Source: an uncultured Planctomycetia bacterium | GTDB lineage: Bacteria; Omnitrophota; Gorgyraeia; 2-01-FULL-45-10; JAHFGN01 | Length of the DNA stretch: 64,000 nt | NCBI GenBank assembly: GCA_964354545.1 | Contig: CAYHAE010000001.1 | Coordinates: forward strand, 65,190 to 129,189 | Direction of reading: 5' to 3' | Shown: one piece after another, positions 1,671 through 54,058 of the stretch | Numbering within the stretch: position 1 is the stretch's first letter | Layout: every line of letters begins with the position of its first letter | Translations under genes and position numbers: made by a program | The notes under the pieces: generated by a model | Databases searched by the model: none | What the model was told of the DNA's origin: nothing | Seen by the model: only the letters and a program-made list of their open reading frames with translations

Positions 1671-1868
1671 ATGCCGGAAGAGAACGTCTTCACGGTCCAG
1701 GAGTTGGCTCGCTACCTCAAGATGAAACCGGTAACTATCTATAAACACGCCAAAGAGGGCAAGTTACCTGGTTTCAAGGTTGGAGCCAATTGGAGGTTCA
1801 AGAAGTCTACAATAGACAATTGGATCTCTGGACAGGAAGAAAAAGAGAATCAAAAGAGCAGTATATAA
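1671..1868 (+). CDS. small excisionase/AlpA-type HTH DNA-binding protein, copy 2
   Basis: 65 aa. The N-terminal 45 aa are almost identical to the copy at 760-948. Confidence 0.6.
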   Translation: MPEENVFTVQELARYLKMKPVTIYKHAKEGKLPGFKVGANWRFKKSTIDNWISGQEEKENQKSSI

Positions 1869-1977: not shown

Positions 1978-3228
1978 ATGAATAAAAGAGTTGTAATTAC
2001 AGGACTGGGGGTACTTGCCTCGAACGGCATCGGCAAGGATGAGTTCTGGAAGTCCCTCAAGGAAGGACGCTCAGGCATCAAGCCTGTGACCCTCTTCGAC
2101 ACAGGGAATCTGCGGACCAAACTCGCAGGCGAGATATCCGACTTCCAGCCAGAGAAAATTTTAGGTCCGAAAGGCCTGCGGACTTTGGACAGGACGACGA
2201 AGCTCGTACTGTGTGCGTCTCACTTGGCGCTCGATGATGCAGGGATAAAATATCCTTTGAGCGAGGAGGAAACAGACTTTTTTGGTGTGTCATTGGGTTC
2301 CACAATGGGTTCTGTCGCGTCCATCAGCGAATTCGATAAAGAGGCATTACGCCATGGGCCCCGAGCCGTGAACCCCGCGCTTTTCCCCAATACCGTGATA
2401 AATTCGCCCGCCAGTCACATCTCGATAATGTTCAACATACAAGGTTTCAACTCCACGATCGCGACAGGGTTCTGCTCAAGCCTGGACGCGATATACTACG
2501 CGATGAATATGCTTAATCTATATGAATACAAAGTAGTGCTGACAGGAGGGGTGGAAGAATTGTGCGAGCATACATATAAAGGTTTTTACAAAATCGGCCA
2601 TCTTGCGGGTTCACGGCCCGGCAAAGAAGAGATCAATAGCCCTTTCGACAGACGGCGAAATGGCATCGTCTTCGGCGAAGGCGCGTGCATAGTCATTCTG
2701 GAAGAACTTGAACATGCCCTGAGTCGGAACGCGAAGATCTATGCGGAAGTACTGGGCTACGGCACGTCATTTGACCCAAAGAGCCGGAACATCTACAGCC
2801 CAAAGGCAGAAGGCGCTACGGAAGCGATAAGGTCGTGTCTTGAGGATGCCGGGGTCGATGGCAAGGATATCGATTATATAAGCGCGAGCGGGAATTCCAC
2901 GCTTGATTGCGATGTAATGGAAACGCGTGCGGTCAAGAATGTCTTTGGTGAACGAGCAAAGAAGATTCCGATAAGTTCATTGAAATCCATGGCGGGGGAG
3001 TCCTTCTCCGCTTCAGGGGCACTGAACCTTGCCGGTTGCCTCGGGATTTTAGAGGAAAATTTTATACCGCCTACGATATGTTACGCAGAGCCCGACAGGC
3101 GATGCGATTTAGACTATGTGCCGAATGAGACACGGGAAGCAAAGGTCGATAAGATCCTGATCGACGCCTTTAGCCCCACCGGCTCAAACTCGACGCTCGC
3201 GGTAGGGAGATATGTTGCTCAAAGATAA
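1978..3228 (+). CDS. beta-ketoacyl synthase-like protein; active-site Cys present but both catalytic His replaced (CLF-like or priming partner)
   Basis: Thiolase-fold KAS family throughout. The TGFCSS Cys box is present. The FabF His303 position reads SASGNST and the His340 position reads SMAGESF. Confidence 0.8.
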   Translation: MNKRVVITGLGVLASNGIGKDEFWKSLKEGRSGIKPVTLFDTGNLRTKLAGEISDFQPEKILGPKGLRTLDRTTKLVLCASHLALDDAGIKYPLSEEETDFFGVSLGSTMGSVASISEFDKEALRHGPRAVNPALFPNTVINSPASHISIMFNIQGFNSTIATGFCSSLDAIYYAMNMLNLYEYKVVLTGGVEELCEHTYKGFYKIGHLAGSRPGKEEINSPFDRRRNGIVFGEGACIVILEELEHALSRNAKIYAEVLGYGTSFDPKSRNIYSPKAEGATEAIRSCLEDAGVDGKDIDYISASGNSTLDCDVMETRAVKNVFGERAKKIPISSLKSMAGESFSASGALNLAGCLGILEENFIPPTICYAEPDRRCDLDYVPNETREAKVDKILIDAFSPTGSNSTLAVGRYVAQR

Positions 3229-3955
3229 GGTTGCAATAGTAACCGGAGGATCGCGCGGCATAGGCAGGGCCATCGTATCGGAATTCGCGAGCCAGGGAGC
3301 AAACGTCGCGTTTACGTTTCTTAAAAGCGAAGACAAAGCCCTCGAATTGAAAAAAGAGATCGAGGGAAAAGGCGGTAAGGTCCTCGTTTTTAGGAATGAC
3401 ATAAAAGATTACGGCGCAACTCGAATTATGGTAGAGGGCGTAAAGAGTCAATTCGGCAGACTGGATATCATCGTAAATAATGCCGGTATATTGCGTGATA
3501 AGGCGCTTATTCTCATGGAAGAAGTGGACTGGGAAGACGTGCTGTCTACCAATCTCTCTGGCGCATTTAACCTTATCAAGGCAGCGATCGTGACATTCAT
3601 GAAGCAAAGAAGCGGCAACATCATCAATGTAACGTCAGTAGCCGGCATAAAGGGTATGGCACGGCAAGTCAATTACTCAGCGAGCAAGGCCGGCATGATA
3701 GGTCTTACAAAGTCGTTAGCAAAGGAGGTTGGTAGCTACAATATCAGGGTGAATGCGATAGCGCCCGGGTATATAGATACTGATATGATTAAAGATTTCA
3801 AAGAAGAATATAAAAAAGACTTATTGAAACGCGTTCCATTGAACCGTTTTGGGAAGGCAGAAGAAGTTGCAAAGGTGGCAACGTTTCTTGCCTCAGACGA
3901 ATCGCAATACATAACGGGTCAGGTGATAACTATTGACGGCGGTTTAGCGATGTAG
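3212..3955 (+). CDS. fabG: 3-oxoacyl-ACP reductase, SDR family
   Basis: TGGSRGIGRAI Rossmann motif, NNAG motif and YSASKAG catalytic Tyr/Lys motif. It overlaps the upstream KS. Confidence 0.85.
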   Translation: MLLKDKVAIVTGGSRGIGRAIVSEFASQGANVAFTFLKSEDKALELKKEIEGKGGKVLVFRNDIKDYGATRIMVEGVKSQFGRLDIIVNNAGILRDKALILMEEVDWEDVLSTNLSGAFNLIKAAIVTFMKQRSGNIINVTSVAGIKGMARQVNYSASKAGMIGLTKSLAKEVGSYNIRVNAIAPGYIDTDMIKDFKEEYKKDLLKRVPLNRFGKAEEVAKVATFLASDESQYITGQVITIDGGLAM

Positions 3956-3978: not shown

Positions 3979-4233
3979 ATGCCTAAACTAGATGCAAGGT
4001 CATTAGAGCAAGAATTGAGAGCGCTTGTTGCCGAGATAGTGGAGATTGAGCCGGAGAAGATAACACCGGAGGCAAAGTTCGTTGAAGATTTGGGGATGGA
4101 TTCCATGATGGCGCTTGAAATTTTGGCATCGATCGAAAAGAAATATAAATTGAAAATTCCCGATGAGAACCTTACGAAGATAACAAATTTAAACCAGGTC
4201 ATAAAATTGGCGAACGAATTCTTAACTAAATGA
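3979..4233 (+). CDS. acyl carrier protein
   Basis: DLGMDSMMALE phosphopantetheine-attachment motif. It is about 85 aa with an RBS gaggaag upstream. Confidence 0.8.
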   Translation: MPKLDARSLEQELRALVAEIVEIEPEKITPEAKFVEDLGMDSMMALEILASIEKKYKLKIPDENLTKITNLNQVIKLANEFLTK

Positions 4234-4249: not shown

Positions 4250-5464
4250 ATGAACAGGCGTGTTGTGGTGACTGGTTTGGGTGTTGTGTCGTCGATAGGC
4301 ATTGGTAAAGATGAGTTCTGGAAGAACCTCATTGCCGGCAAGTCAGGGATAAGCGATATCACCACTTTCGACACATCAGAATACTCTACCCATAAAGGAG
4401 GCGAAGTTAAAAACTTTGACCCCAAAGAATTTATCCCAAAAAATAGAATAAACGATGTCGCAAGGGCTTCACAATTCGCCATCGCTGCAACAAAGATGGC
4501 GCTTGAAGATGCGGGAGTTGATTTGGAGGGAATTCGTAATAAAAAGGTTGGTATAGTAATGGGTACTACCATGGCGGATGTCCAGTCGTTGGAGCAAATA
4601 GATAAGCATTGGATAAGTAAAGGAGAAGATGATGTATGGCCTGTTAATATTAAGAAATATCCGGCAAACAACATTTCAGATCAGATTGGTTTCTATTTTA
4701 GCATACAAGGGTTAAATTCCACGATTCCGACTGCGTGCGCAGCCGGAAATTATTCTATTGGATTTGCATTTGATTTAATAAGAACGGGTAAATTAGATTT
4801 TGCGGTAGTTGGAGGTGCAGATCCAATTTCTCGAACAAATTTTGCAGGTTTTAATCGTCTCGTTGCTATGGCCCCAGACAGATGCCAACCATTCGATAAA
4901 AATAGAAAGGGTATGATGGTTGGAGAAGGGGCAGGTGTGTTAATATTGGAGGAACTGGAAATAGCAGAGAAGCGAAACACATCCATATATGCTGAAATTC
5001 TAGGGTATGGATTGAGTTGCGATGCGTATCATATGACTTCGCAGCGTCCCGATGGTATCATTAAAGTAATGGAGAAGGCGATAAAAAACTCAAGAGTCAA
5101 TAAGGGAGAGGTCGACTATATCAGCGCTCATGGGACTGGCACACCATCAAATGATAAAGCAGAATGTGAGGCAATCAAAACAGTGTTTGGTGTTTTAGTT
5201 AGGAGTATATCTATTAGCTCTATTAAATCAATGCTTGGCCATACCATGGGTGCAGCTAGCGCTATAGAGGCGCTTACCTGTTGCCTTGCAATAGAAAACG
5301 GCATTATTCCACCTACTATTAACTATGAAACGCAGGATCCTGAATGTGACATTGATTGCGTTCCAAATGTGGCAAAAAAGAAGACATTGAAAGTCGTTCT
5401 AAATAATTCATTTGCATTCGGTGAGAATAATGCATGTGTGGTGTTTAAAAAATATGAAAGATAA
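4250..5464 (+). CDS. beta-ketoacyl-ACP synthase with canonical Cys-His-His triad (KAS I/II-like)
   Basis: TACAAG Cys box, SAHGTGT and SMLGHTMG His motifs. The gene is AT-rich. Confidence 0.85.
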   Translation: MNRRVVVTGLGVVSSIGIGKDEFWKNLIAGKSGISDITTFDTSEYSTHKGGEVKNFDPKEFIPKNRINDVARASQFAIAATKMALEDAGVDLEGIRNKKVGIVMGTTMADVQSLEQIDKHWISKGEDDVWPVNIKKYPANNISDQIGFYFSIQGLNSTIPTACAAGNYSIGFAFDLIRTGKLDFAVVGGADPISRTNFAGFNRLVAMAPDRCQPFDKNRKGMMVGEGAGVLILEELEIAEKRNTSIYAEILGYGLSCDAYHMTSQRPDGIIKVMEKAIKNSRVNKGEVDYISAHGTGTPSNDKAECEAIKTVFGVLVRSISISSIKSMLGHTMGAASAIEALTCCLAIENGIIPPTINYETQDPECDIDCVPNVAKKKTLKVVLNNSFAFGENNACVVFKKYER

Positions 5465-6038
5465 TTTGTTAAAGCTTATAAGAAGTAGGCGCACTATACG
5501 AAAATATACAGATAAAGAAATTTCCAATAAACAAATTATGAAAATATTAGAAGCGGGAAGATGGAGCCCCTCGGTTCACAATGCACAACCTTGGCGTTTC
5601 ATTGTGATCAGAAAAGAGCCAGTTATTAAAAGGCTGGCTGGTATATTATTGAAGAAATCTCATCATCTATTCTCTGGGTTTGATATTATTGTCAAAAAGA
5701 CAGCAGAGGTAGTCTTAAGCGCTCCTATCGCTATAGTTATATATAATTCATGTGAGCTCTCAAAAAGGATGAGAAAATTCGGCGATCCCTACTTTTCAAT
5801 TACAGAGATATCGGAGTTGCAGAGCATTTCAGCTTCGATTGAGAATATGTTATTAATGGCGCATTCATTAGGTTTAGGGGCCGCCTGGTTAACATCGCCA
5901 CTTTTTTGCGCCGCAGAGATAAGATCTCTTTTTAATATAAATGGTTCATTTGTAGCACTTTTAACAATTGGATATTCTGGTCAATCTTGTGCAATTTCCG
6001 ATAGAAAATCTTTGAAAAGTTGCATAAAATTCTATTAA
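5454..6038 (+). CDS. nitroreductase-family flavoprotein
   Basis: RRTIRKY...SPSVHNAQPWRF signature. The start overlaps the KAS stop codon. Confidence 0.7.
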   Translation: MKDNLLKLIRSRRTIRKYTDKEISNKQIMKILEAGRWSPSVHNAQPWRFIVIRKEPVIKRLAGILLKKSHHLFSGFDIIVKKTAEVVLSAPIAIVIYNSCELSKRMRKFGDPYFSITEISELQSISASIENMLLMAHSLGLGAAWLTSPLFCAAEIRSLFNINGSFVALLTIGYSGQSCAISDRKSLKSCIKFY

Positions 6039-6039
6039 A

Positions 6040-7530
6040 ATGCAATTAAAACAGGAAAATAAATACGATGTAATTGTAATTGGCGCAGGTATTAGTGGCC
6101 TTATATGCGGCACTATTTTAGCCAAGAATGGCGTAAAAGTCCTTATCGTCGAAAAAAATAATAAAGTAGGTGGTTATTGTTGTTCTTTTATTAGAAATAG
6201 TTTTAAGTTTGATGCGGGTGTGCATTACTTAGGAAGCCTACGTCAAAAAGGCGGACAATTAAGAAAAATACTTGATGAAATAGAATTAACTAGCGACTTG
6301 GAATTAGTTGACACTGATATTTCTGACAAAATATTATTCCTTGATTTCGAAATAATTTTCGGGAAAAATCTCGACGCAGTTACGGATTCTTTCAAAAAGA
6401 ATTTTTCGAATGAAATTGATAGCATTCGGAAATTCATTATTTATATATCCAAAACAGATTTTTCACAACTTTATAGAGAGAATATTACTTTAACATTTAG
6501 GCAGCTCCTTGACAAATATTTTAAATCGGAGTATATAAAACAAATTTTTTCCACGCCTTTAGGCAATGCCGGGGCATCGTCGAATAAGATTGCAGCAATT
6601 AGCGCAATTATTTTATTTAGGGAATATATTTTTGATAGTGGATATTATCCTAAAGGCGGGATGCAAGCTTTTTCAGATAAAATATGTCAAAAGTTCAAAA
6701 CGTTCGGAGGAGAAATTTTATTAAATTCGGAGGTAACAAAAATTTTGCTAACTACTAATAATGAGGCAACGGCTATAATCATAGATGACGGTGAAAGAAT
6801 AGAAGCATCTTATATAGTTTCATGCATAGATTCTTTTCGTACCTTTTTTGATTTATTCTCGAAAAATAGAACGATAGACAAAATTAGAACTAAAATAAAG
6901 AAATTGGTTCCTTCATTTTCTGCTTTTGTCATTTATTTGGGTGTAAAAAACGTAACGCAGGGGTTAGATAGTGTTAAATGTAGCACATGGTTTTGTCCCG
7001 AGCCTAATATAGATGCATATTATGGCTCTGTCTTAAGCAATCACTTAGATTTTAAAAAAAGTTTTTTATTGATCTCTCGGCCAACTTTTTTTGATAAGTC
7101 TCTTGCTCCAAGCAATAGCGAAATCATATCAGTCTTTACTGCCGCACCATTTAAAGATATTGCGTTTTGGGAAAAGAATAGGAAAAAAATAGTCGAAAAC
7201 ATTCTATATAACGTCAAAAAAGTAATTCCTGGAATAACCAATAGCAATATACTTGTAAAAGAGTCAGCCACACCTTTAACATTTTATAAATTTACTTATA
7301 ATTATCGAGGTGCATTGTATGGCTGGGCACCTATCGTAGACCAAATCTCATCAAATATTATGCCCATGAAATCACCTGCTATAAAAAATATGTTATTTGC
7401 AGGTCACTGGACAACTCAGGGATATGCTCAGGGGGGAATACCTGTTGTTGCAATTTCGGGGAGAAATGTTGCTAAGAAGGTATTAAATACATTTTTTAAA
7501 ACGAAAACCAGTATCTTATCACATGATTAA
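6040..7530 (+). CDS. FAD-dependent oxidoreductase of the phytoene desaturase/amine oxidase (CrtI-like) family
   Basis: N-terminal DVIVIGAGISGL...VLIVEKNNKVGGYC dinucleotide-binding motif. About 500 aa. Confidence 0.7.
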   Translation: MQLKQENKYDVIVIGAGISGLICGTILAKNGVKVLIVEKNNKVGGYCCSFIRNSFKFDAGVHYLGSLRQKGGQLRKILDEIELTSDLELVDTDISDKILFLDFEIIFGKNLDAVTDSFKKNFSNEIDSIRKFIIYISKTDFSQLYRENITLTFRQLLDKYFKSEYIKQIFSTPLGNAGASSNKIAAISAIILFREYIFDSGYYPKGGMQAFSDKICQKFKTFGGEILLNSEVTKILLTTNNEATAIIIDDGERIEASYIVSCIDSFRTFFDLFSKNRTIDKIRTKIKKLVPSFSAFVIYLGVKNVTQGLDSVKCSTWFCPEPNIDAYYGSVLSNHLDFKKSFLLISRPTFFDKSLAPSNSEIISVFTAAPFKDIAFWEKNRKKIVENILYNVKKVIPGITNSNILVKESATPLTFYKFTYNYRGALYGWAPIVDQISSNIMPMKSPAIKNMLFAGHWTTQGYAQGGIPVVAISGRNVAKKVLNTFFKTKTSILSHD

Positions 7531-9208
7531 CAAGTTGCAAGAATGCGAAATAGTAAGCAGCCGTATAATGTATAAGAACAATTCTGATATGAATATTTTA
7601 GGATATATTGATTCTGGAGTAACTGGCTATGATGCGAAACCATTCATTATCATTCCTCCGGGATACGGAGAAACAAAAAAAGATCACATATCAACTGCTT
7701 ATTACTTGGTAAGCAATGGTTTTAATGTGCTTCGTTACGATAATACTAATCATATCGGAGAAAGCGATGGGGAAATGGTAGATTGTAATTTGTTATCAAT
7801 GGAAAAAGATTTGGATGCAAGCATTAATTTCATAACGAGCAATTTTGCTACTGACAAGGTTGGTGTCATAGCTTCTAGCCTTGCTAGTAGAGTTGCCTTT
7901 AAGGTTGCCTCCCGTAATAGCTTTATATCTTTCATTATAAGCTTAGTCGGTGTTACGAATTTGAGAAAATCAATTTATTATGTCTATAAAGAGAAGATGA
8001 TAGAAGGGTACATTAGAGGACGCAGATGGGGCATTACTGATATTTTAGGTTTTGAAGTCAGCGATAATTTTCTAAAAATAGCTGTAGAAAATAATTATGA
8101 TACGTTTATTAGTACACTGAATGACATTAAGCGTATAGAGATTCCAATTTTATATATAGTTGCAGAACATGATGCATGGACCGATATTAAAGATAGTTAT
8201 TTGGTATACAAAAAGACGAAAAATATTAATAAAGAATTGTTTTTTGTTTCTAACGCTTTACATCAAATACAAGAAAACCCAAAGCTTGCAAAACAGGTCA
8301 TTTTGAAAATAGTTAAAAATTGCATTAAATACATGCACAATTGCGCAATTTCAGATGAACAATGCATGGAGCCTGACATACATTTTATAGTACGGCAAAA
8401 TAGAATCGAGCAAACAAATTTAAAAAAAACATTGACGGTAACTAGAAACGACGAAAAAAAATTCTGGACTAAGTATATGTCAGATTACTTTATATTAATG
8501 AAATCCTATGAATATAAAAATTTTTTAAGATTAAACTATGAACTGTTAGGCGGGTTTATAGATGGAAATAATTTCTTAGACGCCGGATGCGGAAATGGGC
8601 ATTTTGGTGCTTGGTTAGCAACTAAATTATGCCAAATTGAAAAAATAAGTCGTCTTCACAATTATAATAAGATTTTGTATACGGGGATAGATTTTGTAGA
8701 CCCACCCCTTAAGGAAGCTTTGGATAAGCACGCAAAATTAATCGCGACTTTATCTAAAAAAGAAAATATTGATTTATTAAAAAAGATGAAATTTGTTTAT
8801 ATCGTAGCTACACTAGAAAATGAGTTACCGCTTGAGAATAATTTTTTTGATAAAATTTGTTGCAATCTTGTTATCTCCTATGTTAAAAAGCCAGTCAAAG
8901 TTATTCAAAATCTCGTAAAAAAAATGAAGGAAGGGGGAAAAATAACGGTAAGTTCTCTAAAGCCAAATAACGATCTTTCTCTCATATATCGTAAGGCGCT
9001 TGATCAATCTTTAACCAGTAAAGAAGTTTTTGAAGCTAGAAGGCTTTTAACGAATGCAGGGAAAATAAAATATAAGGAGAAAATAGGTCATTATACATTT
9101 TTCAATGAATTTGAGTTGCTTGAAGTTTTAAGAAAGGCAGGATGTAAAGAAATACATACTTTTAGAACATTTGGAGACCAAGCAAATATTGCTGTAGGAA
9201 CTAAATAG
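7523..9208 (+). CDS. fusion protein: LuxD-like acyltransferase (alpha/beta hydrolase) domain + class I SAM-dependent methyltransferase domain
   Basis: The N-terminal domain resembles the LuxD myristoyl-ACP acyltransferase family (NGFNVLRYDNTNHIGESDG ... VGVIASSLASRVAF). The C-terminal domain has the LDAGCGNGHFG methyltransferase motif I. Confidence 0.55.
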   Translation: MINKLQECEIVSSRIMYKNNSDMNILGYIDSGVTGYDAKPFIIIPPGYGETKKDHISTAYYLVSNGFNVLRYDNTNHIGESDGEMVDCNLLSMEKDLDASINFITSNFATDKVGVIASSLASRVAFKVASRNSFISFIISLVGVTNLRKSIYYVYKEKMIEGYIRGRRWGITDILGFEVSDNFLKIAVENNYDTFISTLNDIKRIEIPILYIVAEHDAWTDIKDSYLVYKKTKNINKELFFVSNALHQIQENPKLAKQVILKIVKNCIKYMHNCAISDEQCMEPDIHFIVRQNRIEQTNLKKTLTVTRNDEKKFWTKYMSDYFILMKSYEYKNFLRLNYELLGGFIDGNNFLDAGCGNGHFGAWLATKLCQIEKISRLHNYNKILYTGIDFVDPPLKEALDKHAKLIATLSKKENIDLLKKMKFVYIVATLENELPLENNFFDKICCNLVISYVKKPVKVIQNLVKKMKEGGKITVSSLKPNNDLSLIYRKALDQSLTSKEVFEARRLLTNAGKIKYKEKIGHYTFFNEFELLEVLRKAGCKEIHTFRTFGDQANIAVGTK

Positions 9209-9221
9209 AAAATTTAAGCCT

Positions 9222-11357
9222 ATGAACTATTTTGGAATTACAGGCCTCTTGAATGGAATAATAAGCACAATTTTGGGCCTATTTGTAATTACAAGAGATT
9301 TTCGTAATGTTAAATATATTGCCTATTCTCTAGCTTGTTTGAATGTTTCGATTTGGAGCTATAGTTATTTTCTTTGGCAACTCTCTAACGATTATGTAAG
9401 CGCTCTTTTCTGGGCAAGAGCTTTAATGGCAGGTAGTGTTTATACTCCCATTTGTCATTTACATGCCTTAGTAGAAATATTAAATGAAAAAACTAGAAAA
9501 AGGCAAAAAATTATTATTTTAGGATATTTATTAGCCACACTTTTGTTGATTTCTGATTTCGGACCATTTTTAGTAAAGGGTGTTGAATCCAGAATGTTTT
9601 TTCCATTTTGGCCAATTCCTGGCATTGCGTTTCATTTTTTTATAGCCGTATGGGTTTATTACGTTGTATATAGCATTTATATTCTGTATAAACATAGTTT
9701 TAAAATTCAGGTCGCAGATGCAAATAAGATAAAATTTATCTTTATCATAACACTTTTTGTTTGGATTGGTGCCGCAACTAATCTTACATTATGGTATAAC
9801 ATAAACATTCCACCCTGGGGAAACCCGGCCATATCTATTTATTTAATATTGATCGCTTATGCTATATTACGATATCGGTGGATGGACATCGAAGTCGTCA
9901 TCAAGAAGACCCTTGTCTTTGCGGGGTTGTTGGCGGCGGTGTTTGCCATATTAATCCTGCCGACTCTGATTATTCAGGAATATCTTCTGAGAAGTGCTAG
10001 GTTTAGCGGAAGGGCACTGGGTCTTACCGTAAGCGGTATTATCATCATATTCACCATGAGGAAGATCGAAAATTTTCTTATAAATGTAACAGACAAATAC
10101 CTCTTTCAGAAGAAATACGACTACAAAGAGCTGCTCAAGACATTCACCACGGATGTTCTCACGGTCATGAACCTGGACAGGCTCGTGAACCTCACCGTGG
10201 ATAAGCTCGTCGACATCGTAAAGCTCAACTCCTGTGCAGTATTGCTCCTCGATGAGGATAGCCGGCAGTTCACCGTGGTCGCCTCAAAGCATATAAAAGA
10301 CCCCTCGGTGACATTGGTTAAGCCCAATGGCATCATCGCGTTTTTAGAGACTACCCACGGATACCTCTTGAAAAGCGAGCTCGCTCAAAAGAAGGTATTC
10401 ATCCCGGAGCCGGTCCAGGAGGTAATAGATAAGCTTAACGCAGAACTTATCATACCCATGGTGTTACATGATAAGGTTATGGGGATATTATCGCTCGGCA
10501 AGAAGAAGTCCGATGAGGGCTACACCCAAGATGACTGGGATATACTTATGCCGCTTTCCAGGACGCTCGCCATAGCGATCTCTAACGCAAAACTCTTCGA
10601 GGAACTCGGAAAGACCCAGGCGGAGGCGGCACAGAGGGAGAAGATGGCGGTCATCGGGACATTGTCGGCTGGCATAAACCATGAGATTTGTAATCCTCTT
10701 GGCATCGCGCGCGGGCAGTGCGAGGCCTTCCTGTTGAACGTGCGCGATGGCCTGTTCAAAGATAAAAGCCCCGATGAGCTATTAACCAAGGCCAAGGAGA
10801 TAATGCAGAAGGTAATAAAAGAGACCGACCGGGCCGTTTCCATCACCAAGAAGCTTTCGAGTTTCGCAAAGCCGTCTAGGGGCGAGGCGGAGTATATCGT
10901 CATAGATAAAGAAGTGGACGAGGTCCTGGCTCTGGTTGGCTACGAACTGAAATTGGAGAAGATCGAGATCGAGAAGCAAGTAGGAAAAGGTTTACCCGAC
11001 CTTTTCGTCGATAGGAAACAGCTCCAGGAGATCCTTTTCAACCTTATCCGCAATGCCGGCCAGGCGATAGGCGAAAAAGGGAAGATCACGGTCGCGGCCC
11101 ATGAGTTGAAAGGAAAGATAAGCATCGATATCCAGGATACGGGGTCGGGGATCCCTGAGGACAAGATAAAGGAGCTCTTCAATCCATTCTTCACGACCAA
11201 GGAACCGGGCAAAGGCACAGGTCTGGGGTTGTTCATCGTTCGTCAGGTCGTTGAGAAGAACGGCGGACGCATCTATCTCAAACAGACGAAAGTCGGAGAA
11301 GGAACGACATTTACGCTTGAATTTCCTGTTGCGGCAGCGAAGGAAGTTCAGGTTTAA
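9222..11357 (+). CDS. sensor histidine kinase (polytopic N-terminal membrane domain, GAF, HisKA, HATPase_c), paralog 1
   Basis: Multiple TM helices are followed by the [11 protein letters not shown] motif. The H-box is [12 protein letters not shown]-boxes DTGSGI and GTGLGL are present. Confidence 0.8.
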
Positions 11358-11384: not shown

Positions 11385-11756
11385 ATGGAAAAACCACGGA
11401 TAGTTGCAATAGACGATGAAGCCGAATTCGTCGACATGTTGAAGAACTATTTTGCGCCAAGAGGGTATGACATCGAGGTGGCGATCCGCGGGGCAAAGGG
11501 CATCGAGATCGTAAAGGAGAAGAAGCCGAACGTCGTGTTGATGGACCTGAAGATGCCTGGGATCGATGGCGATGAGGTGCTGACGCTCCTCAAATCGATG
11601 GAGCCGGCTCCCAAGGTGATATTCGTGACAGCATATGACGACGGCGGCAAGACGAAGGCGCGCCTCTTGAAGATGGGCGCATACGCGTATTTCGACAAGC
11701 CATTGTCGAGCCTGAAGGATTTGGAAGAGGCGATTAATCAGGCAGCTCAGAAATAA
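11385..11756 (+). CDS. single-domain response regulator (CheY-like receiver)
   Basis: Motifs DDE, VLMDLKMPGIDG and the downstream Lys. Confidence 0.8.
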   Translation: MEKPRIVAIDDEAEFVDMLKNYFAPRGYDIEVAIRGAKGIEIVKEKKPNVVLMDLKMPGIDGDEVLTLLKSMEPAPKVIFVTAYDDGGKTKARLLKMGAYAYFDKPLSSLKDLEEAINQAAQK

Positions 11757-12415: not shown

Positions 12416-13840
12416 GTGACCTATAACAACCACAGAAAAGCGCCGAGCTGGTCCAAGCTCCAGAACTGGTTTTTACAGCTCAGCGCCGAGGGAGAGAACG
12501 GGAACGGCGCGGTTAAGAATAAAGGCGCAGATGCGTCTGCCCGGGATACCTCTCACGAAAAATTCGCCCCCAGGCTGGATTACCAGGTCTTCTTGGAAAA
12601 TGCTTCGAGGAGCATGATCCGTTTCAAGAAGCCCGAGCACCTCATAAAGATGATCTGCCGCGTCATCAGCGAGCAGCTTAAGGTTACCCACACGGCGATG
12701 CTGCTGTTTAAAGAGTCGAAGAACGCGTACATCCTGATCGATTCAAGGGGCGAGGGCGGGCTGAAGATCCCGGTCGGATATATCCGGCTGCCGTTAGACA
12801 GCCCCCTGATCCAGATATTCAATCAACAACAGAACTTTCTCGTATCGGGCACAGGGACACTGAACTATGACGACATCATCATCTGCCTCAAGAATAGAGA
12901 TATACTCGACAAAGAGCCGGAATTGTACAACGAGCTTTTAGCCCTAAAGAAGCAGATGGACCTGCTGAAGGCGAACGTGTGCGTTCCGTGCTATTTTAAA
13001 CAGGATCTCCTTGGGATCATGATCCTGGGCTACAAGATAAACGGACAGCGTTTCAGAAGAGATGAGCTCGGTTTCTTCGTCACTCTGGCGAACGATGCTG
13101 CGATGGCGATATCGAATGCGCAGCTCATCGAAAGCCAGCTGGAGAGGATCGACGAGATAAAAGAGCTCTATAATCGCGAGCACAGGATATTCATTCACAC
13201 CGCGATCGCGCTTGCCGCGGCCATCGATGCGAGAGACCCGTATACCCACGGCCATACTGCGAGGGTAACGAACTACTGCCTTGCCATCGCGAAAGAGCTG
13301 GAGGGAGTTCCGGAAGAGGGCGGATACAAGAATTTCAAGGAGACCCTGCACCTATCGGCGCTTTTGCACGATGTCGGGAAGATCGGCATACCTGACCACA
13401 TATTGAATAAGACAGGCATGCTCACACCCGAAGAGTATACGGAGGTGAAGAAGCATCCTCTTATAGGCGCGATGATAATAAATCCTATCAAGGAATTGAA
13501 CGAGATCGCGCGGGAAGTGCGCCACCACCAGGAGGCCTTCGACGGTTCCGGCTATCCCGATGGGCTCAAAGAGAGCGAGATACCCTTTATCGCGAGGATC
13601 ATCGCAGTCGCCGACGCGTTCGATGCGATCACCACCGATAGGCCTTACAGGAAGAAGAAAAGCCCTGAGGAGGCAATTAAAGAACTTAAGAAATATTCGG
13701 GAACGCAGTTCGACCCTGTTGTCGTTTCAGCCCTCATCCTCGCCTACGAAAAAGGAAACCTCCTGCCCAACCACAAGAATAGGAACGGTAAGAACGGAAG
13801 TAACGGTATCAAATCTCCCTACCCTGCAAATCCTTTTTAA
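12416..13840 (+). CDS. HD-GYP domain c-di-GMP phosphodiesterase with N-terminal GAF-like sensor
   Basis: HD motif LHDVGKIGIP and GYP motif FDGSGYPDGL. GTG start with an AGGAG RBS. Confidence 0.8.
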   Translation: MTYNNHRKAPSWSKLQNWFLQLSAEGENGNGAVKNKGADASARDTSHEKFAPRLDYQVFLENASRSMIRFKKPEHLIKMICRVISEQLKVTHTAMLLFKESKNAYILIDSRGEGGLKIPVGYIRLPLDSPLIQIFNQQQNFLVSGTGTLNYDDIIICLKNRDILDKEPELYNELLALKKQMDLLKANVCVPCYFKQDLLGIMILGYKINGQRFRRDELGFFVTLANDAAMAISNAQLIESQLERIDEIKELYNREHRIFIHTAIALAAAIDARDPYTHGHTARVTNYCLAIAKELEGVPEEGGYKNFKETLHLSALLHDVGKIGIPDHILNKTGMLTPEEYTEVKKHPLIGAMIINPIKELNEIAREVRHHQEAFDGSGYPDGLKESEIPFIARIIAVADAFDAITTDRPYRKKKSPEEAIKELKKYSGTQFDPVVVSALILAYEKGNLLPNHKNRNGKNGSNGIKSPYPANPF

Positions 13841-16832: not shown

Positions 16833-18905
16833 ATGAATATTTTTACCATTTCTTCAGCTTTAATTTTTGTAACATCTTTAACTTCCGTAGCATTCCTATT
16901 ATTTAAAGGTAAAGAAAAACTAAAATGGCTATGGCTTCTATTTTCTATCTCCGTTGGAAATTGGGGACTTGCGGGCTATAACATATCAACTGCGCATTCA
17001 AAAGATATTGCCTTCGTATGGTGGAAAATCGCATATATTAGTGTAATTTTTGCTCCCGCGATCTATACGCATTTTGTTTTCACTTTTCTAAATAGTACGA
17101 AAAAATCGCTTCTCATATTGTTAGACATCGCAGCCTTTTCTTTTTTTGGTTTTAATCTATTATTTCCCAAGTTGTTTATTGGCGATCTGCGCCTTGTTTC
17201 TAGACAATTTTGGTGGCCCGATTGGCTAAGTACTTGCAACATCGTGTTTTTAATTTTTTTTGTTGCTTTTTATTGTTTCGCGCTCAATTATAGCATTTTA
17301 TTAATGATAAAACAGTTTTCCACCTCAACAGGTAGAAAGCGAAATCAGGCAAGATATTTTTTAATTGCAGCGATTTTTGGATGGGGCGGCGTTATGCCGC
17401 TTTTTTTGAATGTATTTTCGCATATTGACATTTATCCTTATAGTAATTTTTTGACATCAATTTACCCACTCATTGTCACCTACGCCATCATCCGCCATCG
17501 GCTGATGGACATCGAAGTCATCATAAAGAAGACCCTCATATTTGCGGGGTTATTCTCGGCGGCTTATGCGGTCTTCGCTTCTTTTGCCCTCTTGGGGCAG
17601 CTTGTCTTCGAGCGGTTCGTGACAGCCAACAGATGGGTCGCAATGCTCCCGAGCGTGGTAGTTGTCATCGCCATGTTCCGTCCTCTCGAGAAACTCCTGG
17701 TTGCTGTTACTGACAGGTACCTCTTCCAGAAGCGGTACGATGCCAAAGAGCTTCTCAAGATCTTCACCGAGGAGGTCCTTTTAGTCCTTGATATAGAGAA
17801 ACTTGCCGCCCTCACCATGAAAAAGCTCAACGAGACGATGAAGCTAACCACCTGCGCGCTCCTCCTCAAGGACGACGCGGCAGGAGACTTCGTATGCGCC
17901 TCGCCTCCTCCGGCAAACAAGGTGAGCTTATCCCGCGCAAGCGGCCTCGCCGTATCGCTGGAGAGATCGTCCTCTTTCATCTTGCGTACACATAGTGCGA
18001 GGATACCGGATACTGTAGCGAGCGACATGACACATCTCCGCGCAGAGCTCGCCATCCCCCTTCTCCTTCGCGGAAATCTCATCGGCATCCTCGCCCTCGG
18101 CAGGAAGATGTCAGATGAGGACTATGGCCAGGACGACTTGGACATACTTCTTCCTCTCGCGCAGACTCTCGCCATTGCCATCTCGAACGCGAAACTCTTC
18201 GACGAGCTCTCGAAGACCCAGGCAGAGGCAGCGCAGAAGGAGAAGATGGCGATGGTCGGAACCCTCGCCGCAGGCATGGCCCACGAGATAAGGAACCCCA
18301 TCACCACCATTAAGATATTCTCAGAATTCCTCAAGGAGAAGAAGGACGACCCCTCCTTCATCGAGAAGTTCGAGCGCCTCGTTCCAAGGGAGGTGGAGAA
18401 GATAAACCACATGATCACCCACCTCCTCGAGTTCTCAAGGCCCGCAGATTCCGCAGCAATGGAAGAAGTAGACCTCCATGAAGCCCTCAAGGACACGCTC
18501 GAGGTCCTCGGCCACGAGATGGTCTTACATGACATCGTCCTTAAAGAGGAGATAAGCGCTCTGCCTCCAGTATGGGGCAACCGGAAGCATCTCGAGGAGG
18601 TCCTCTTCAACCTCCTCCAGAACGCCATCCATGCCATAGGGAGGCGAGGTACCATCACCGTCACTGCGAAGGAGAGGGCAGGCTCAGTCGAGCTTGCCAT
18701 CCGCGACACCGGCTGCGGCATCCCCCAAAACGTCCTCCCCCACATATTCGAGCCCTTCTTCACCACCAAGATAGACACAAAAGGAGTAGGCCTTGGGCTC
18801 TATGTAGTCAAACAGCTCATGGTGAGGATGGACGGCTCTGTATCAGTCGAGAGTGAAGTAGGGAAGGGGACGACGTTCAGGCTGGTGTTCGCAAGGGCCA
18901 CATAA
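16833..18905 (+). CDS. sensor histidine kinase paralog 2 (7TM, GAF, HisKA, HATPase_c)
   Basis: Same architecture as 9222-11357, with the motifs LMDIEVIIKKT and GMAHEIRNP. Confidence 0.8.
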   Translation: MNIFTISSALIFVTSLTSVAFLLFKGKEKLKWLWLLFSISVGNWGLAGYNISTAHSKDIAFVWWKIAYISVIFAPAIYTHFVFTFLNSTKKSLLILLDIAAFSFFGFNLLFPKLFIGDLRLVSRQFWWPDWLSTCNIVFLIFFVAFYCFALNYSILLMIKQFSTSTGRKRNQARYFLIAAIFGWGGVMPLFLNVFSHIDIYPYSNFLTSIYPLIVTYAIIRHRLMDIEVIIKKTLIFAGLFSAAYAVFASFALLGQLVFERFVTANRWVAMLPSVVVVIAMFRPLEKLLVAVTDRYLFQKRYDAKELLKIFTEEVLLVLDIEKLAALTMKKLNETMKLTTCALLLKDDAAGDFVCASPPPANKVSLSRASGLAVSLERSSSFILRTHSARIPDTVASDMTHLRAELAIPLLLRGNLIGILALGRKMSDEDYGQDDLDILLPLAQTLAIAISNAKLFDELSKTQAEAAQKEKMAMVGTLAAGMAHEIRNPITTIKIFSEFLKEKKDDPSFIEKFERLVPREVEKINHMITHLLEFSRPADSAAMEEVDLHEALKDTLEVLGHEMVLHDIVLKEEISALPPVWGNRKHLEEVLFNLLQNAIHAIGRRGTITVTAKERAGSVELAIRDTGCGIPQNVLPHIFEPFFTTKIDTKGVGLGLYVVKQLMVRMDGSVSVESEVGKGTTFRLVFARAT
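18120..18905. repeat. about 0.8-kb segment near-identical to 20377-21162 (HK catalytic half)
   Basis: The encoded C-terminal roughly 260 aa of HK2 and HK3 are nearly identical. Minus-strand ORFs 18122-18778 and 20379-21035 translate almost identically. Confidence 0.8.
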
Positions 18906-19080: not shown

Positions 19081-21162
19081 ATGACCCCGATAGATTATTT
19101 TTATAAAGGGTTGCCATTAGCAGTAGGCACTTTCGCGTTGACACTAGGCGTTATTGCAATAAAGTATAGTGCAAAACGTTTATTGAGTCGTTTGTTAGCG
19201 CTTATTTGTCTTGGGGGAGTGTTATGGTTATATCCAGCCTTTATCATGTACATATTTCCAAAACAACCCTTGGTTGTGATATGGTCTTCGAAAGTCGTTT
19301 ATATTGGAGTAACGTTTATCGTAGTTTTCTATGCACATTTTACCTCTAAATTCTTGGGCTTAAAAAATAGGCTTTTTTTGATTATAGTCTATAGTCTCGG
19401 GATTATCTTTATTTTGATGTCAGTATTTACTAATAACATTATAGATGGATTCTACATATATTTTTGGGGAGCGTACCCCAAAGCCGGATCTCTATTTTCG
19501 TTCTATTGGTTTTATGCGCTTAGTTGTTTTGCCTATTGTTTGGTACGCCTTTATCAGGCTAGCTATGGTGTTCTTACTTCCACATATAGTAGTACTGAAC
19601 GGAATAGGATTAAGCATGTTTTTTGGGCGTATCTTCTGGGGAATTTCGGTGCATTTGATTTCATTCCAAGCTACGGTTTTGAATCTTATCCATTTGGTTG
19701 CTTCAATATCGCCATATTTATATCAGTTTTAGCATATGCGATTATCCGCCACCAGCTTCTTGACATCGAAGTCATCATCAAAAAGACCCTTGTCTTCGCA
19801 GGGCTCTTTGCCGCAGTGTACATAGTCTTCGCCTCGTTCGCGCTCATCGGGCAGGTCTTCTTTGAACGGTTCATTACTGCTAATAGGTGGATCTCGACGA
19901 TCCCGAGCGTCATCGTCGTCACCTTCATCTTCCGCCCCCTCGAGAAGCTCCTCATCACCGCGAGCGACAGGTTCCTCTTTCAGAAGAAGTACGACTACAA
20001 GGAGCTCCTCAGGACGTTCACGACAGAAGTCCTCACGGTGCTCGACACCGCGGAGCTCGCCTCGCTCACCGTAAAGAAGCTCTGCGACATCATAAAGCTC
20101 GCCTCGTGCGCGATGCTCCTCAAAGACGAGGCGCAGGGCGAATGTAAGGTCGTATCCTCGCAAGGACTTGCCACAGGGTCGATCGCGCTTGCGAAAGAGA
20201 GCGAGCTCTGCGAAGTATTAGAGAAGACTCATTCCTATGTCATGGCAGCGGGCGATACAGTAAGCCCTGCGCTGCAAGAGGAGATGCGCGTCTTGGGCGC
20301 AGAGCTCATCATACCGCTTATCCTCCACACTAAGCTCATCGGCGTCTTATCGCTTGGGAAAAAGAAATCAGACGAACCCTATACCCAGGACGACCTCGAC
20401 ATCCTTCTGCCTCTCTCGCGGCCCCTCGCCATTGCCATCTCGAACGCGAAACTCTTCGACGAGCTCTCGAAGACGCAGGCAGAGGCGGCGCAGAGGGAGA
20501 AGATGGCTGTCCTCGGCACCCTCGCCGCAGGCATGGCCCATGAGATAAGGAACCCCATCACCACAATCAAGATATTCTCAGAGTTCCTCAAAGAGAAGAA
20601 GGACGACCCCTCCTTCATCGAGAAGTTCGAGAGGCTTGTTCCTAAAGAGGTAGAGAAGATAAACCACATGATCACCCACCTCCTCGAGTTCTCAAGGCCC
20701 GCAGATTCCGCAGCAATGGAAGAAGTAGACCTCCATGAAGCCCTCAAGGACACGCTCGAGGTCCTCGGCCACGAGATGGTCTTACATGACATCGTCCTTA
20801 AAGAGGAGATAAGCGCTCTGCCTCCAGTATGGGGCAACCGGAAGCATCTCGAGGAGGTCCTCTTCAACCTCCTCCAGAACGCCATCCATGCCATAGGGAG
20901 GCGAGGTACCATCACCGTCACTGCGAAGGAGAGGGCAGGCTCAGTCGAGCTTGCCATCCGCGACACCGGCTGCGGCATCCCCCAAAACGTCCTCCCCCAC
21001 ATATTCGAGCCCTTCTTCACCACCAAGATAGACACAAAAGGAGTAGGCCTTGGGCTCTATGTAGTCAAACAGCTCATGGTGAGGATGGACGGCTCTGTAT
21101 CAGTCGAGAGTGAGGCAGGGAAGGGGACGACGTTCAGGCTGGTGTTTGTGACGGCCACATAA
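19081..21162 (+). CDS. sensor histidine kinase paralog 3 (7TM, GAF, HisKA, HATPase_c)
   Basis: Same architecture as HK2. The catalytic half is near-identical to HK2. Confidence 0.8.
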   Translation: MTPIDYFYKGLPLAVGTFALTLGVIAIKYSAKRLLSRLLALICLGGVLWLYPAFIMYIFPKQPLVVIWSSKVVYIGVTFIVVFYAHFTSKFLGLKNRLFLIIVYSLGIIFILMSVFTNNIIDGFYIYFWGAYPKAGSLFSFYWFYALSCFAYCLVRLYQASYGVLTSTYSSTERNRIKHVFWAYLLGNFGAFDFIPSYGFESYPFGCFNIAIFISVLAYAIIRHQLLDIEVIIKKTLVFAGLFAAVYIVFASFALIGQVFFERFITANRWISTIPSVIVVTFIFRPLEKLLITASDRFLFQKKYDYKELLRTFTTEVLTVLDTAELASLTVKKLCDIIKLASCAMLLKDEAQGECKVVSSQGLATGSIALAKESELCEVLEKTHSYVMAAGDTVSPALQEEMRVLGAELIIPLILHTKLIGVLSLGKKKSDEPYTQDDLDILLPLSRPLAIAISNAKLFDELSKTQAEAAQREKMAVLGTLAAGMAHEIRNPITTIKIFSEFLKEKKDDPSFIEKFERLVPKEVEKINHMITHLLEFSRPADSAAMEEVDLHEALKDTLEVLGHEMVLHDIVLKEEISALPPVWGNRKHLEEVLFNLLQNAIHAIGRRGTITVTAKERAGSVELAIRDTGCGIPQNVLPHIFEPFFTTKIDTKGVGLGLYVVKQLMVRMDGSVSVESEAGKGTTFRLVFVTAT
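20377..21162. repeat. second copy of the 0.8-kb duplicated HK catalytic segment
   Basis: See 18120-18905. Confidence 0.8.
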
Positions 21163-24452: not shown

Positions 24453-24677
24453 GAAAAGAGCAGGGCTGACCATCGCGATGTGTGAGAACAGTGGATGCGC
24501 ACGATTTAAAGCCCCAGGCAGCGAGTGGTCCTGCGAAAAATAAAAGAGATGGTCAGCTCATTTCGCGGGACTCTCCTCTCTGGGGTTCTTTTTTTGTTTC
24601 GCGCCGCTTGGCCAGGCCGTCTCGCAAGAGCCGCCTGGCCGTTTTATTTTTGTAGTGAGCTGATCAATGAGGCTGCC
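24453..24677 (+). promoter_or_regulatory. structured 5' leader with long-range inverted repeat and terminator-like hairpin plus T-run
   Basis: GCTGACCATC at 24465-74 pairs with GATGGTCAGC at 24548-57. Hairpin GGCCAGGC...GCCTGGCC at 24609-39 is followed by GTTTTATTTTT, immediately before the ATG at 24678. Confidence 0.4.
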
Positions 24678-27600
24678 ATGGACAGAATGAGGTTTTTCCC
24701 TTTGACCAAAATCATCTCGATAGCGCTCGTCTTTACCCTGCTTAATCAGCAGATACTTTTTGCCGCGGATTACTCCTACGGGATTCCGGTCGAAAACGAA
24801 AAGAACCGCTCAGGCTTTATGTCCGTGGATGAGCTGGATAAGGCCCAGCGTCGCCAAGAGGAGCTTATAGCGAGGCTCCAGGCATCTCTTGATAGTAAGC
24901 TCTCAGGAGGCGTGGGGGATGAAAGTGAGTGGACGCTCCAAAGGAAGAGCGGAACCTCATCCGAAGGGCAGGACTCTGCGGTCACGCCATCGGCACAAGA
25001 CCAGACAGTGCCTCTTGAGGTTTCTCAAGCGGAGATCACCGTGACGACCGCAGCAGGTGATCATATCGCATATTCCGGTGGTGCGATCGCGCGGATCGAG
25101 CAACCGAACGGCACTATCATCGAAGATGTCGTACTGACGCCTACAGGCGAACTTGAACGTGGGCTCATCCGATTCGTGGACGGCGGCGTGCTTACGATAG
25201 AGGGGGGACGGGCATGCTCGTATTTGGGTCCAGACGGTACCGCTACCCACTATCGTCAGGATGGGCTGGTCGATTCGGAAGTCACACCTGACGGCCTTGT
25301 ATCATATTACTCATACCTCTTTGATGACGCAGGGTCGATTGCGCGAACGACTATAACCAGGCCCGAGGAGATCATCGAGTACGACGAATCAGGTAGGCTC
25401 TCGAAGGTCACAAAGCTTGATGGCACGGAGATCGGGTATGAGAACGGCATAATCTCTCAGATGACGAAAGGAGACGGGTCGAAGTATGTCTTTGGCAGGA
25501 TATTGAACGGTCCTGATATAGAGGTAAAAATCGTTACCTATTTTAATAATTCAGGGTACCGGGTTGACTTCGACAGCGTATACAACGTGGTCTCGGTTAC
25601 ATCGCCCTCCGGTTCTTTCACGAAATACGGACATGATCGCACGCCGCTCTACACGCGAAAAGACAATGCGTTGATTGCATACGACAACACCGGCCAGATA
25701 GCATATGCGATCTGCGGCGTTACTGGCTTTGATGGCACATACCGGCAAGGCCAGGATGGATATATAGCGGTCCCGCTCGCGACCATTGACGAGCTTGCGC
25801 GCGCTATAGAAGATCTAGATAGTGCGGCACGGGCTCTCGCAGATGCCGAAGATGCATGCGCAAAACGGCAACTCGAGCTTACCGAAGCAATGCAGTTTTC
25901 AGCACAGACCTTCCAAGCATATCAGGAAGCGGACACTTCGGCCCAGCAGGCCGAGACTGCGCGGCGCGCAGCTGAAGCAGCTCTTATGAGTACACTCGTT
26001 GACGTAGAAACACAATTCGCGTACGGAGACGACGTTACGGAGATTGAGGACCAGAAGGTCGTGTTGAGAGAACAATTTGGGATCTTCAATACGACCCTTT
26101 GGTACAGGACAAGTTCGGCGTACGCACAATGTACTTCGGGCAGACTCTTCCTTTGCGGGACAGGCACCGACACGCGAGCCCATGTCCATTATCAAAAGAC
26201 ATTCGGCGAATACACATTTGCCCGGATGGGATTCGACTTCAAAGTCGATTCGCTCACCGGATCTTTTAAGGCAGGACTTCAATCCGCGTCTTCGAGTACC
26301 TCCTTCGGGAACTCGCTTCAGACAGCATGCATCGAGGTCCGCGAAGGCAAGATCTGTATTGACATTGTCCAGGGCCAGCTTGAGAACCAGCCGACGGCGG
26401 TACTGTTACCGAAGGTCAATACGGACTACTCATGCCTATTTGAGTTGAAGAACGGGTATTTAAATATCTATGTCTGGGAGAAGGAAGAAGTAAGGCCTGC
26501 GGAGGCGCTCTATTCATTTCGTACGCAAAACTGGCCCGGCCTGCGGCCCTTTTTTGAAGTCCGCTCGGGATGTGCATGGGTGGGCAATGTTATGTTGCAC
26601 GCGCCGCTTGATGATCGGATATATGATGTAAAATCGCAGCTCGCAGGACGAATGTCGTATCACGACGATTATGCCACAAGATATGAGTATAGACAGGCTG
26701 GCACATCAACGCTAACTGATCTCGATACATTCAATCGGTTGACCAGACTCTGGGAATCAGGCAGCAGTGTAACATCCGGTCGGGCAAATGTCAGTTTGAG
26801 CGGACTCCGAATGAGGTCGTATCTGCCGCGAACGATTGACCAGACCTATTCGTTCGATTTTGCTCTTGGTACAGTTTATTCAAATGCACGGGCAGGGCTC
26901 GAAGGGAAGGAGGCCACAGGAAACGGATATCTCAGGTTTGTCGTGCAATCAGGTAGATTGTCGGTTGTGACTGTGTGCAACGACCACGAAAAAACAGTGG
27001 CGGTTTCACCGGAGCAGTTTCTGCCTCTCCAGCAGTACACCGCTCAATTTGAGGTAAAGGCAGGCGCTATAGACGTCTACGTATGGAGAAAAGGGGATGA
27101 CCGGCCAGCTATTCCGCTATACAGCTTCACAGATCCTTCATGGAGCGCCCTGCGGTTCTACGCGAAAACAGACAGCGGTCGCTTTGTCATCGATGAATTC
27201 TCCCGTACACAAACATGCGGCGCAACCGGCCAGGAAGCGGATACTGTGGTTGCGCACCTGCGCGATATGTTCGACGCTGAGCGATCGGCGATCGTAAACC
27301 GCGAGGATGCTCGCGGTCGCTATGAGGCAGCTCTCACACAAGAGGGGCAGGCTAAAGATGCACTCACTATCGCGGAGAATGGGCACGCATCTGCGCTTAC
27401 GCAAGAAGAGCAGGCGCTGCATGCTCTGGAAGGTATTAACGGCGCCTTGAATGTGCCAAGGGTTATCCCCGATCAGCCTCTTTTCTACGAGACCTGCGAT
27501 CGCGTGATCCAAGACATGCCGGCAGTTGTGCTATATATAAATGAGAATTTCGCGTCCGAGGCCGGGATTTCCTACGTCACATATTGGCAGAATGGTCTCC

Positions 27601-53743: not shown

Positions 53744-53764
53744 AAGATCAGTTCTTTCACAACT

Positions 53765-54040: not shown

Positions 54041-54058
54041 ATTACAACGGAGGAAGAT

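Follow-up and report, generated by a model that had tools for sequence, protein, structure and literature searches.

Anaerobic ammonium-oxidizing (anammox) bacteria carry a gene set, "Cluster I", which encodes amxACP, amxFabZ, amxFabF2, amxFabFmut, a phytoene-desaturase homologue and a B12-radical-SAM (S-adenosylmethionine) enzyme (bioRxiv 10.64898/2026.05.19.726425). This cluster has been reported as unique to ladderane producers. Two of its products, amxFabF2 and amxFabFmut, are FabF paralogues that form chains B and C, respectively, of the Brocadia fulgida structure 9S5H; each is inactive singly, but the heterodimer obtained by co-purification after their co-expression catalyses the decarboxylation of malonyl-ACP (acyl carrier protein) and the formation of acetoacetyl-ACP (bioRxiv 10.64898/2026.05.19.726425). 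Here we describe a related pair of ketosynthases (KSs) encoded in a 64,000-nucleotide stretch of DNA (hereafter, the window) from an uncultured bacterium of the Omnitrophota (assembly GCA_964354545.1, contig CAYHAE010000001.1, positions 65,190 to 129,189). KSx, a ketosynthase-fold protein without a catalytic triad, is encoded at positions 1978..3228 of the window, and KS2, a FabF-type active ketosynthase, at 4250..5464, both on the + strand. In our estimate, the probability is about 0.85 that KSx is a FabF paralogue with no catalytic activity of its own and acts as the chain-length-factor-like subunit of a heterodimer with KS2.

Several properties of the anammox pair are relevant for the comparison. 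In amxFabFmut, the catalytic Cys is replaced with Val (Thr in Scalindua) and His with Asn, Glu or Cys; residues F135 and V139 line the tunnel of the partner subunit, and mutants shift the chain-length preference (bioRxiv 10.64898/2026.05.19.726425). Probes based on alpha-bromoacyl-ACP crosslink amxFabF2 only, and the Scalindua brodae amxFabFmut was found in the crystal as a homodimer that was inactive and had its interface motif disordered (bioRxiv 10.64898/2026.05.19.726425). A triad-less FabF paralogue was tabulated earlier, in 2009, in Kuenenia stuttgartiensis: Kuste2805, a "non-canonical FabB" with Phe163, Asn300, Lys328 and Glu333, whose gene adjoins that of an active FabF, Kuste2804 (Rattray et al., PMC2649909, Table 2).

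The KSx open reading frame (ORF) codes for 416 amino acids and contains both ketosynthase domains, PF00109 (2.3e-38) and PF02801 (8.3e-28). Its AlphaFold model has a mean predicted local distance difference test (pLDDT) value of 96.9, and the top Foldseek match to this model in a PDB library to April 2026, which does not contain 9S5H, is Bacillus subtilis FabF (4LS5, template modelling (TM) score 0.95). Thus, as modelled, KSx is a complete ketosynthase (thiolase) fold. With TIGR03150, the fabF equivalog model, KSx scores 362.9 bits, below the curated cutoff of 493.75; this score and the loss of the triad led us to reject canonical FabF as the identity of KSx.

A sequence-only reading of this gene had proposed that the Cys box of KSx is intact and the nucleophile retained, while both catalytic His are missing and the conserved Lys is kept. 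The ORF and the three motifs quoted in support are indeed present in the sequence: TGFCSS at residues 163-168 (with Cys as C166), SASGNST at 302-308 and SMAGESF at 337-343. To place these motifs relative to FabF, the alignment register was tested by five alignments, all of which are gap-free around the nucleophile site: BLASTP of KSx against KS2 (35% identity, no gap from residue 61 to ~206); phmmer of KSx against Listeria FabF 3O04 (no gap at 105-194) and against 9S5H_C; a MAFFT alignment of 175 sequences (172 homologues, the KSx and KS2 of the window and E. coli FabF); and a hidden Markov model (HMM) built from 46 triad-bearing KSs, in which residues 130-200 are free of gaps and inserts. In all five, the FabF nucleophile Cys falls on F165 of KSx, and C166 is the +1 residue. 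In E. coli FabF numbering, C163 corresponds to F165, T164 (+1) to C166, H303 to S304, T305 to N306, K335 to K336, H340 to E341 and the gate residue F400 to P400. The spacing on either side of F165 (I-A-T 3-5 residues before, GG 25 after) is the same as around Cys163 of E. coli FabF. The F165 and C166 codons, whose assignment is supported by both the gap-free alignments and the secondary-structure register of two models, occupy positions 2470..2475; according to the alignments, S304-G305-N306, which stand in place of H-G-T of the HGTGT motif, are encoded at 2887..2895, and the segment from the kept K336 to E341 at the site of FabF H340 is encoded at 2983..3000 (all on the + strand).

As a structural control, DSSP strings of the AlphaFold models of KSx and KS2 (pLDDT of the latter, 94.0) were compared. 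In the KS2 model, a strand at 155-159 is followed by a helix at 162-178 that begins with A162, so that C163 is the second helical residue. In the KSx model, the strand is at 158-161 and the helix at 164-181; this helix begins with G164, and the second helical residue is F165. The helix that comes before and the strand that comes after are likewise shifted by +2 between the two proteins, while C-terminal elements are offset by +10, putting S304 on H294 and E341 on H331 of KS2. With F165 at the Cys site and S304 and E341 at the His sites, KSx thus lacks the entire Cys-His-His triad. We conclude that KSx is a triad-less ketosynthase paralogue and that Cys166 is not at the nucleophile position.

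The claims of the sequence-only reading therefore fared differently. Loss of both His (H303 to S304, H340 to E341) and retention of the Lys (K335 as K336) agree with the alignments, and with both His gone neither malonyl-ACP decarboxylation nor condensation is expected of KSx. The retained nucleophile, on the other hand, came from a register error of one residue, and the structural check that had been suggested, here made with model secondary structure, places F165 and not C166 at the Cys site. Because C166 is the +1 residue and the Cys site itself is occupied by Phe, the pattern is not the opposite of that of chain-length factors, and there is no reason to expect Cys to be loaded with an acyl group. 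A shift of register that would return His to the catalytic positions, named beforehand as the observation that would overturn the reading, is impossible: there are only six His in the whole of KSx, the last being H246, and the C-terminal half is His-free. As an off-by-one artefact, the "Cys kept, His lost" pattern claimed for KSx is of little import.

We next consider conservation of the substituted positions. Among close homologues of KSx (n=120, identity to KSx >= 65%), F165 is present in 120/120, position 306 is N or D and position 341 is E or D in all 120, and the equivalent of K336 is K in 119. Position 166 is C in 117/120 of these sequences, S in two and T in one. At position 304, S, T, A, G or C is found across the KSx family. 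Because the same residues are fixed in close homologues, the substitutions in KSx are neither chance nor sequencing errors. A scan of species-representative genomes revealed 497 stretches encoding KSx relatives, of which the best 80 loci were analysed; all of these come from Omnitrophota or similarly binned metagenome-assembled genomes. They fall into clade A, to which the window belongs (67-82% identity to KSx), and a sister clade B (52-61%). In 85 of the 86 KSx-type genes of these fetched loci the nucleophile column is Phe, the exception being Ile in one locus (L006).

A reading of KSx as a decaying, functionless fabF duplicate would account for the disappearance of all catalytic residues. 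It is contradicted by the full-length ORF and the very confident AlphaFold model, by the occurrence of the family in hundreds of Omnitrophota species representatives, with 52-82% identity in the 80 best loci, and by the conservation of the substituted sites (F165, N/D306, K336 and E/D341) along with many structural residues. Given this strong conservation, we rejected the pseudogene interpretation, which we regard as exceedingly improbable.

The +1 position behaves differently from the nucleophile column. It is Cys in clade A, whereas in clade B Thr predominates and Ser, Ala and Cys also occur; in active KSs, Ala or Ser is found in the syntenic KS2-type proteins and Thr in E. coli FabF. Position 166 thus tolerates any small residue, and Cys166 is a clade-specific variant rather than a conserved nucleophile. 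In the wider triad-less family the signature is [variable]-[small]...A-N-S...K-S-M-x-G-E, and the nucleophile column holds F, I, M, Y, E, Q, S, A, N, L, P or G.

These data bear on the proposal that KSx is a transacylase, gatekeeper or priming enzyme that would be loaded with an acyl group on Cys166 and pass it on without decarboxylative condensation. Non-elongating KS0 domains of trans-acyltransferase polyketide synthases, in which Cys is kept and His is lost, are well known; a Cys within one residue of the nucleophile column is kept in 117/120 close homologues of KSx, and so is K336 in KSx itself. Two distant relatives with 42-44% identity, P0135 (Candidatus Poribacteria) and P0197, have a true Cys in the nucleophile column and have lost both His (C-V-S-N/S-K-E), so that, judging by the aligned sequences, the Cys-kept/His-lost pattern exists in these relatives and not in the window. 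In KSx, F165 rather than C166 occupies the nucleophile site in every alignment and in model secondary structure, orthologues in the same gene context have T, S or A at position 166, as active KSs have A, S or T, and Phe400 of the gate and oxyanion hole is gone (P400). The mutant subunit of the anammox pair, moreover, is not crosslinked by acyl-ACP probes. KSx also differs from KS0 domains in being a free-standing FabF-type protein, and with Cys166 out of register its identification as a KS0-type transacylase was rejected. We consider acyl transfer through Cys166 very unlikely. Retention of C166 in so many close homologues nevertheless leaves room for some clade-specific role and is a point against the heterodimer interpretation as we present it; this Cys may, for instance, take part in redox chemistry or contact a ligand in the dead pocket.

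The closest structural counterparts of KSx and KS2 are the two chains of a single solved heterodimer. The best PDB match of KSx is 9S5H_C, i.e., amxFabFmut (E 5.6e-116, while 9S5H_B gives 3.4e-77 and FabF 2.3e-79), while that of KS2 is 9S5H_B, i.e., amxFabF2 (8.2e-155, compared with 1e-102 for FabF). In the joint alignment, KSx is 48% identical to chain C and KS2 is 56% identical to chain B, and all cross pairs are at 34-36%; KSx is 36% identical to amxFabF2 and 35% to FabF. When scored with a profile of the KSx family, 9S5H_C reaches 540 bits, 9S5H_B 398 and FabF 385. Alignment to 9S5H_C further shows that the tunnel-lining residues of KSx, F136, T139 and V140 (encoded at 2383..2397, + strand), are identical to F135, T138 and V139 of the Brocadia amxFabFmut. 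When net charge was simply counted over the segments that form the interface, the electrostatic asymmetry described for the anammox pair was not seen even in the Brocadia sequences themselves.

The likeness to amxFabFmut (Broful02170 in B. fulgida, Kuste3606 in Kuenenia; chain C of 9S5H and 9S5I) extends to the FabF fold, the loss of Cys-His-His with Lys kept, Glu in place of the second His in both proteins, and clustering with an amxFabF2-type KS (56% identity between the two), an ACP and a CrtI-like flavoenzyme. The differences are Phe at the nucleophile site of KSx as opposed to Val in amxFabFmut (Thr in Scalindua), Ser as opposed to Asn in place of the first His, and the order of genes: in the window it is KSx-FabG-ACP-KS2, whereas in anammox bacteria FabFmut is directly upstream of FabF2. 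The window has no B12-radical-SAM gene, unlike Cluster I. A counterpart of the FabZ-type dehydratase of the anammox cluster is found in many KSx relatives and is absent from the window. Judged from sequence comparison, KSx can be assigned to the amxFabFmut type by its fold, triad loss, closest sequence, co-encoded KS and tunnel residues.

By analogy with the anammox proteins, KSx and KS2 would associate physically, and both subunits would be needed for activity. KS2 would supply the sole Cys-His-His triad (C163, H294 and H331) and, with the ACP of the cluster as carrier, catalyse acyl transfer, decarboxylation of malonyl-ACP and condensation. KSx, in which four catalytic residues are gone (Cys replaced with F165, the two His with S304 and E341, and the gate Phe with P400), would contribute to the dimer interface and its stability and form part of the ACP docking surface. 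F136, T139 and V140 of its helix-loop-helix would wall the acyl tunnel of the partner and, in this way, shape it and influence chain length; C166 would be merely a small residue in the first helix turn, adjoining the former nucleophile site. The FabG, flavoenzymes and LuxD-methyltransferase protein encoded nearby would then reduce, tailor and off-load the chain.

The pairing is also seen in gene order. In clade A it reads HTH_17-KSx-FabG-ACP-(FabZ/ApeI-like dehydratase)-KS2-...-CrtI-like-histidine kinase; synteny extends to the HTH_17 gene in nearly all clade-A loci, and most of the clusters include the phytoene-desaturase-type (PDH-type, CrtI-like) gene. The window and several relatives of the same architecture lack the dehydratase gene. 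When clade-A loci with >= 3.5 kb of downstream sequence were counted (n=27), a KS2-type gene was found in the same operon-like cluster in 26. Of the role that the sequence-only reading had assigned to KSx, the part of a non-condensing partner of the KS at 4250-5464 is thus supported, by the similarity to the anammox pair and by synteny; the acyl-Cys transacylase part fell with the register.

Two observations weigh against a dedicated partnership of KSx and KS2. In clade B, a triad-bearing KS is nearby in only 7/26 loci, and in L008, a complete 1.43-Mb Omnitrophota chromosome (CP070780.1) and the one exception among the 27 clade-A loci, the order is HTH_17-KSx-(NAD-binding protein)-FabG-ACP, and a KS2-type gene is missing from the surrounding 8 kb. 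The two genes are thus not neighbours in every genome, and the partner may be located elsewhere. Many clade-B genes lie in a housekeeping neighbourhood, ribBA-ribH-nusB-PHP-ribD-ribE-[KSx-like]-FabG-FabZ...ligA, as in L039:8001-10616 and ~19 more loci (e.g., L040, L042, L043, L046, L054 and L056); the KSx-like proteins encoded there are 52-58% identical to KSx and have the signature F-T...N-N...K...E. Neither a triad-bearing KS nor an ACP was found within 8 kb in these riboflavin/ligA-type loci.

Because of these clade-B relatives without a nearby active KS or ACP, the main rival of the proposed heterodimer is a role independent of KS2, in which KSx, paired with itself or with a different protein (e.g., the housekeeping FabF), would bind or sequester acyl-ACP or serve as a scaffold. 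Besides the clade-B genes located next to FabG and FabZ, this explanation can draw on L008 and on the homodimer formed by the S. brodae amxFabFmut in the crystal. That homodimer, however, is inactive, with its interface motif disordered; in clade A, the window's own clade, KS2 is co-clustered with KSx in all but one of the loci counted; and KSx and KS2 are each closest to one chain of the same solved heterodimer. A function of KSx without KS2 is, in our view, unlikely, though less so than acyl transfer through Cys166.

In the classical chain-length factors (KS-beta) of type II polyketide synthases, Gln stands in for the Cys, and the gene comes right after that for KS-alpha. KSx resembles such proteins (the actinorhodin chain-length factor, Iga12 and ApeC) in that an inactive KS paralogue would form a heterodimer with an active KS and shape its tunnel. 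It differs from them by having Phe165 instead of Gln, and by the position of its gene, which is upstream of KS2 and parted from it by FabG and ACP. Among the 60 best PDB matches of KSx there were no chain-length-factor chains, while FabFs and KS-alpha were present. Identification of KSx as a classical KS-beta was rejected, for it lacks the Gln and has a different lineage and a different gene order. Compared by the published table only, Kuste2805 is alike in Phe at Cys163, Asn at Thr300, the kept Lys328 and Glu at His333, and in the active FabF (Kuste2804) adjacent to it, cf. KSx with KS2; the first His is Asn in Kuste2805 and Ser in KSx.

The genes around KSx and KS2 are described in the order of their location; all are on the + strand. 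The cluster is preceded by a gene for a small DNA-binding protein of 65 amino acids (1671..1868; Pfam HTH_17 was assigned on the identical gene of a related locus, L002), a candidate regulator of the cluster. Between this gene and KSx there are a hairpin with a T-run (~1870-1905) and a TTGACA box (~1923). The FabG-type 3-oxoacyl-ACP reductase gene (3212..3955), syntenic in relatives, overlaps the 3' end of KSx by 17 nucleotides, and its product scores 309.6 with TIGR01830, above the cutoff of 297.75. A dedicated ACP of 84 amino acids is encoded at 3979..4233; it matches PF00550 and PDB entries for ACPs, including amxACP (7AUF, 9S5I_E), and its gene was called in two related loci (L001/L002). 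KS2, the proposed catalytic partner, is of amxFabF2 type, with C163, H294, K326 and H331. It is followed by a nitroreductase-family flavoprotein (5412..6038; PF00881), whose start codon is uncertain and which is present in clusters of many relatives, and by a flavoenzyme of the CrtI/phytoene-desaturase family (PDH-like; 6040..7530), which matches PF01593, scores below the cutoff of TIGR02734 and finds CrtI (PDB 4DGK) with E 6e-23. The next gene (7523..9208) codes for a fusion of a LuxD-like acyltransferase/hydrolase (PF02273) with a SAM methyltransferase (Methyltransf_23/31/11), which is likely an off-loading and tailoring enzyme. A HisKA_7TM-GAF histidine kinase (9222..11357) is syntenic with the cluster, a kinase being encoded after the cluster in many relatives, and next to it is a response regulator (11385..11756).

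The G+C content drops to 30-40% at window positions 4400-10000, as compared to ~50% in the flanks, and the trough spans KS2, the nitroreductase, the CrtI-like gene, the LuxD-methyltransferase fusion and the 7TM part of the histidine kinase. The CrtI-like protein of the window is at most 39% identical to CrtI-like proteins of the fetched related loci, and the fusion was found in only one other of the 80 best loci (L072). These features suggest that the end of the operon is a mosaic or was replaced by horizontal transfer.

In clade-A clusters, 43 neighbour genes without an assignment were compared with Pfam; they included methyltransferases, FMN reductases, NAD_binding_4 acyl reductases and ferredoxins, and the 25 commonest families in this set did not include radical SAM. 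In view of this census we have no grounds to name a ladderane as the product, and we do not propose one of that type. To our knowledge, Omnitrophota are not known to make ladderanes. A literature search on Omnitrophica and ladderane turned up no account of this cluster in Omnitrophota.

An inactive KS paralogue of the KSx type was thus noted in 2009 and structurally characterised in 2026; what is new here is the host phylum, Omnitrophota, and a somewhat different cluster. Close homologues of the FabF2/FabFmut pair are widespread in Omnitrophota together with ACP, FabG, a CrtI-like enzyme and often a dehydratase, with no sign of radical SAM. Their occurrence helps part generic lipid-tailoring genes of the proposed ladderane cluster from ladderane-specific ones and points to an uncharacterised lipid pathway present across this phylum, an uncultivated group. 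More tentatively, KSx/KS2 with the ACP, reductase and CrtI-like flavoenzyme might correspond, in Omnitrophota, to the core of anammox Cluster I, an idea that we consider possible but doubtful. If true, the FabF2/FabFmut/PDH core would not be ladderane-specific and would instead produce, by a route that needs no oxygen, an acyl chain that is desaturated or tailored in some other way. Comparison with the Omnitrophota loci would then help to identify those anammox genes that are indeed required for ladder formation.

Other features of the window can be mentioned briefly. The histidine kinase at 9222-11357 is one of three paralogous GAF histidine kinases, the others being encoded at 16833-18905 and 19081-21162, in tandem. 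The HisKA_7TM N-terminal domain was confirmed in the first two, and the protein encoded at 19081-21162 is of the same length and has the GAF-HisKA-HATPase core. The kinase at 9222-11357 and its response regulator (11385-11756) are followed by an HD-GYP-type HD_5 protein (12416-13840). A giant ORF at 24525-33068 codes for 2847 amino acids, and its sole Pfam match at E<=1e-6 is a weak one to Peptidase_C39 (8.7e-07). Finally, a cobalamin riboswitch (Rfam RF00174, 68 bits) at 53752-53962 is located directly 5' of a TonB-dependent receptor gene (54035-56128).

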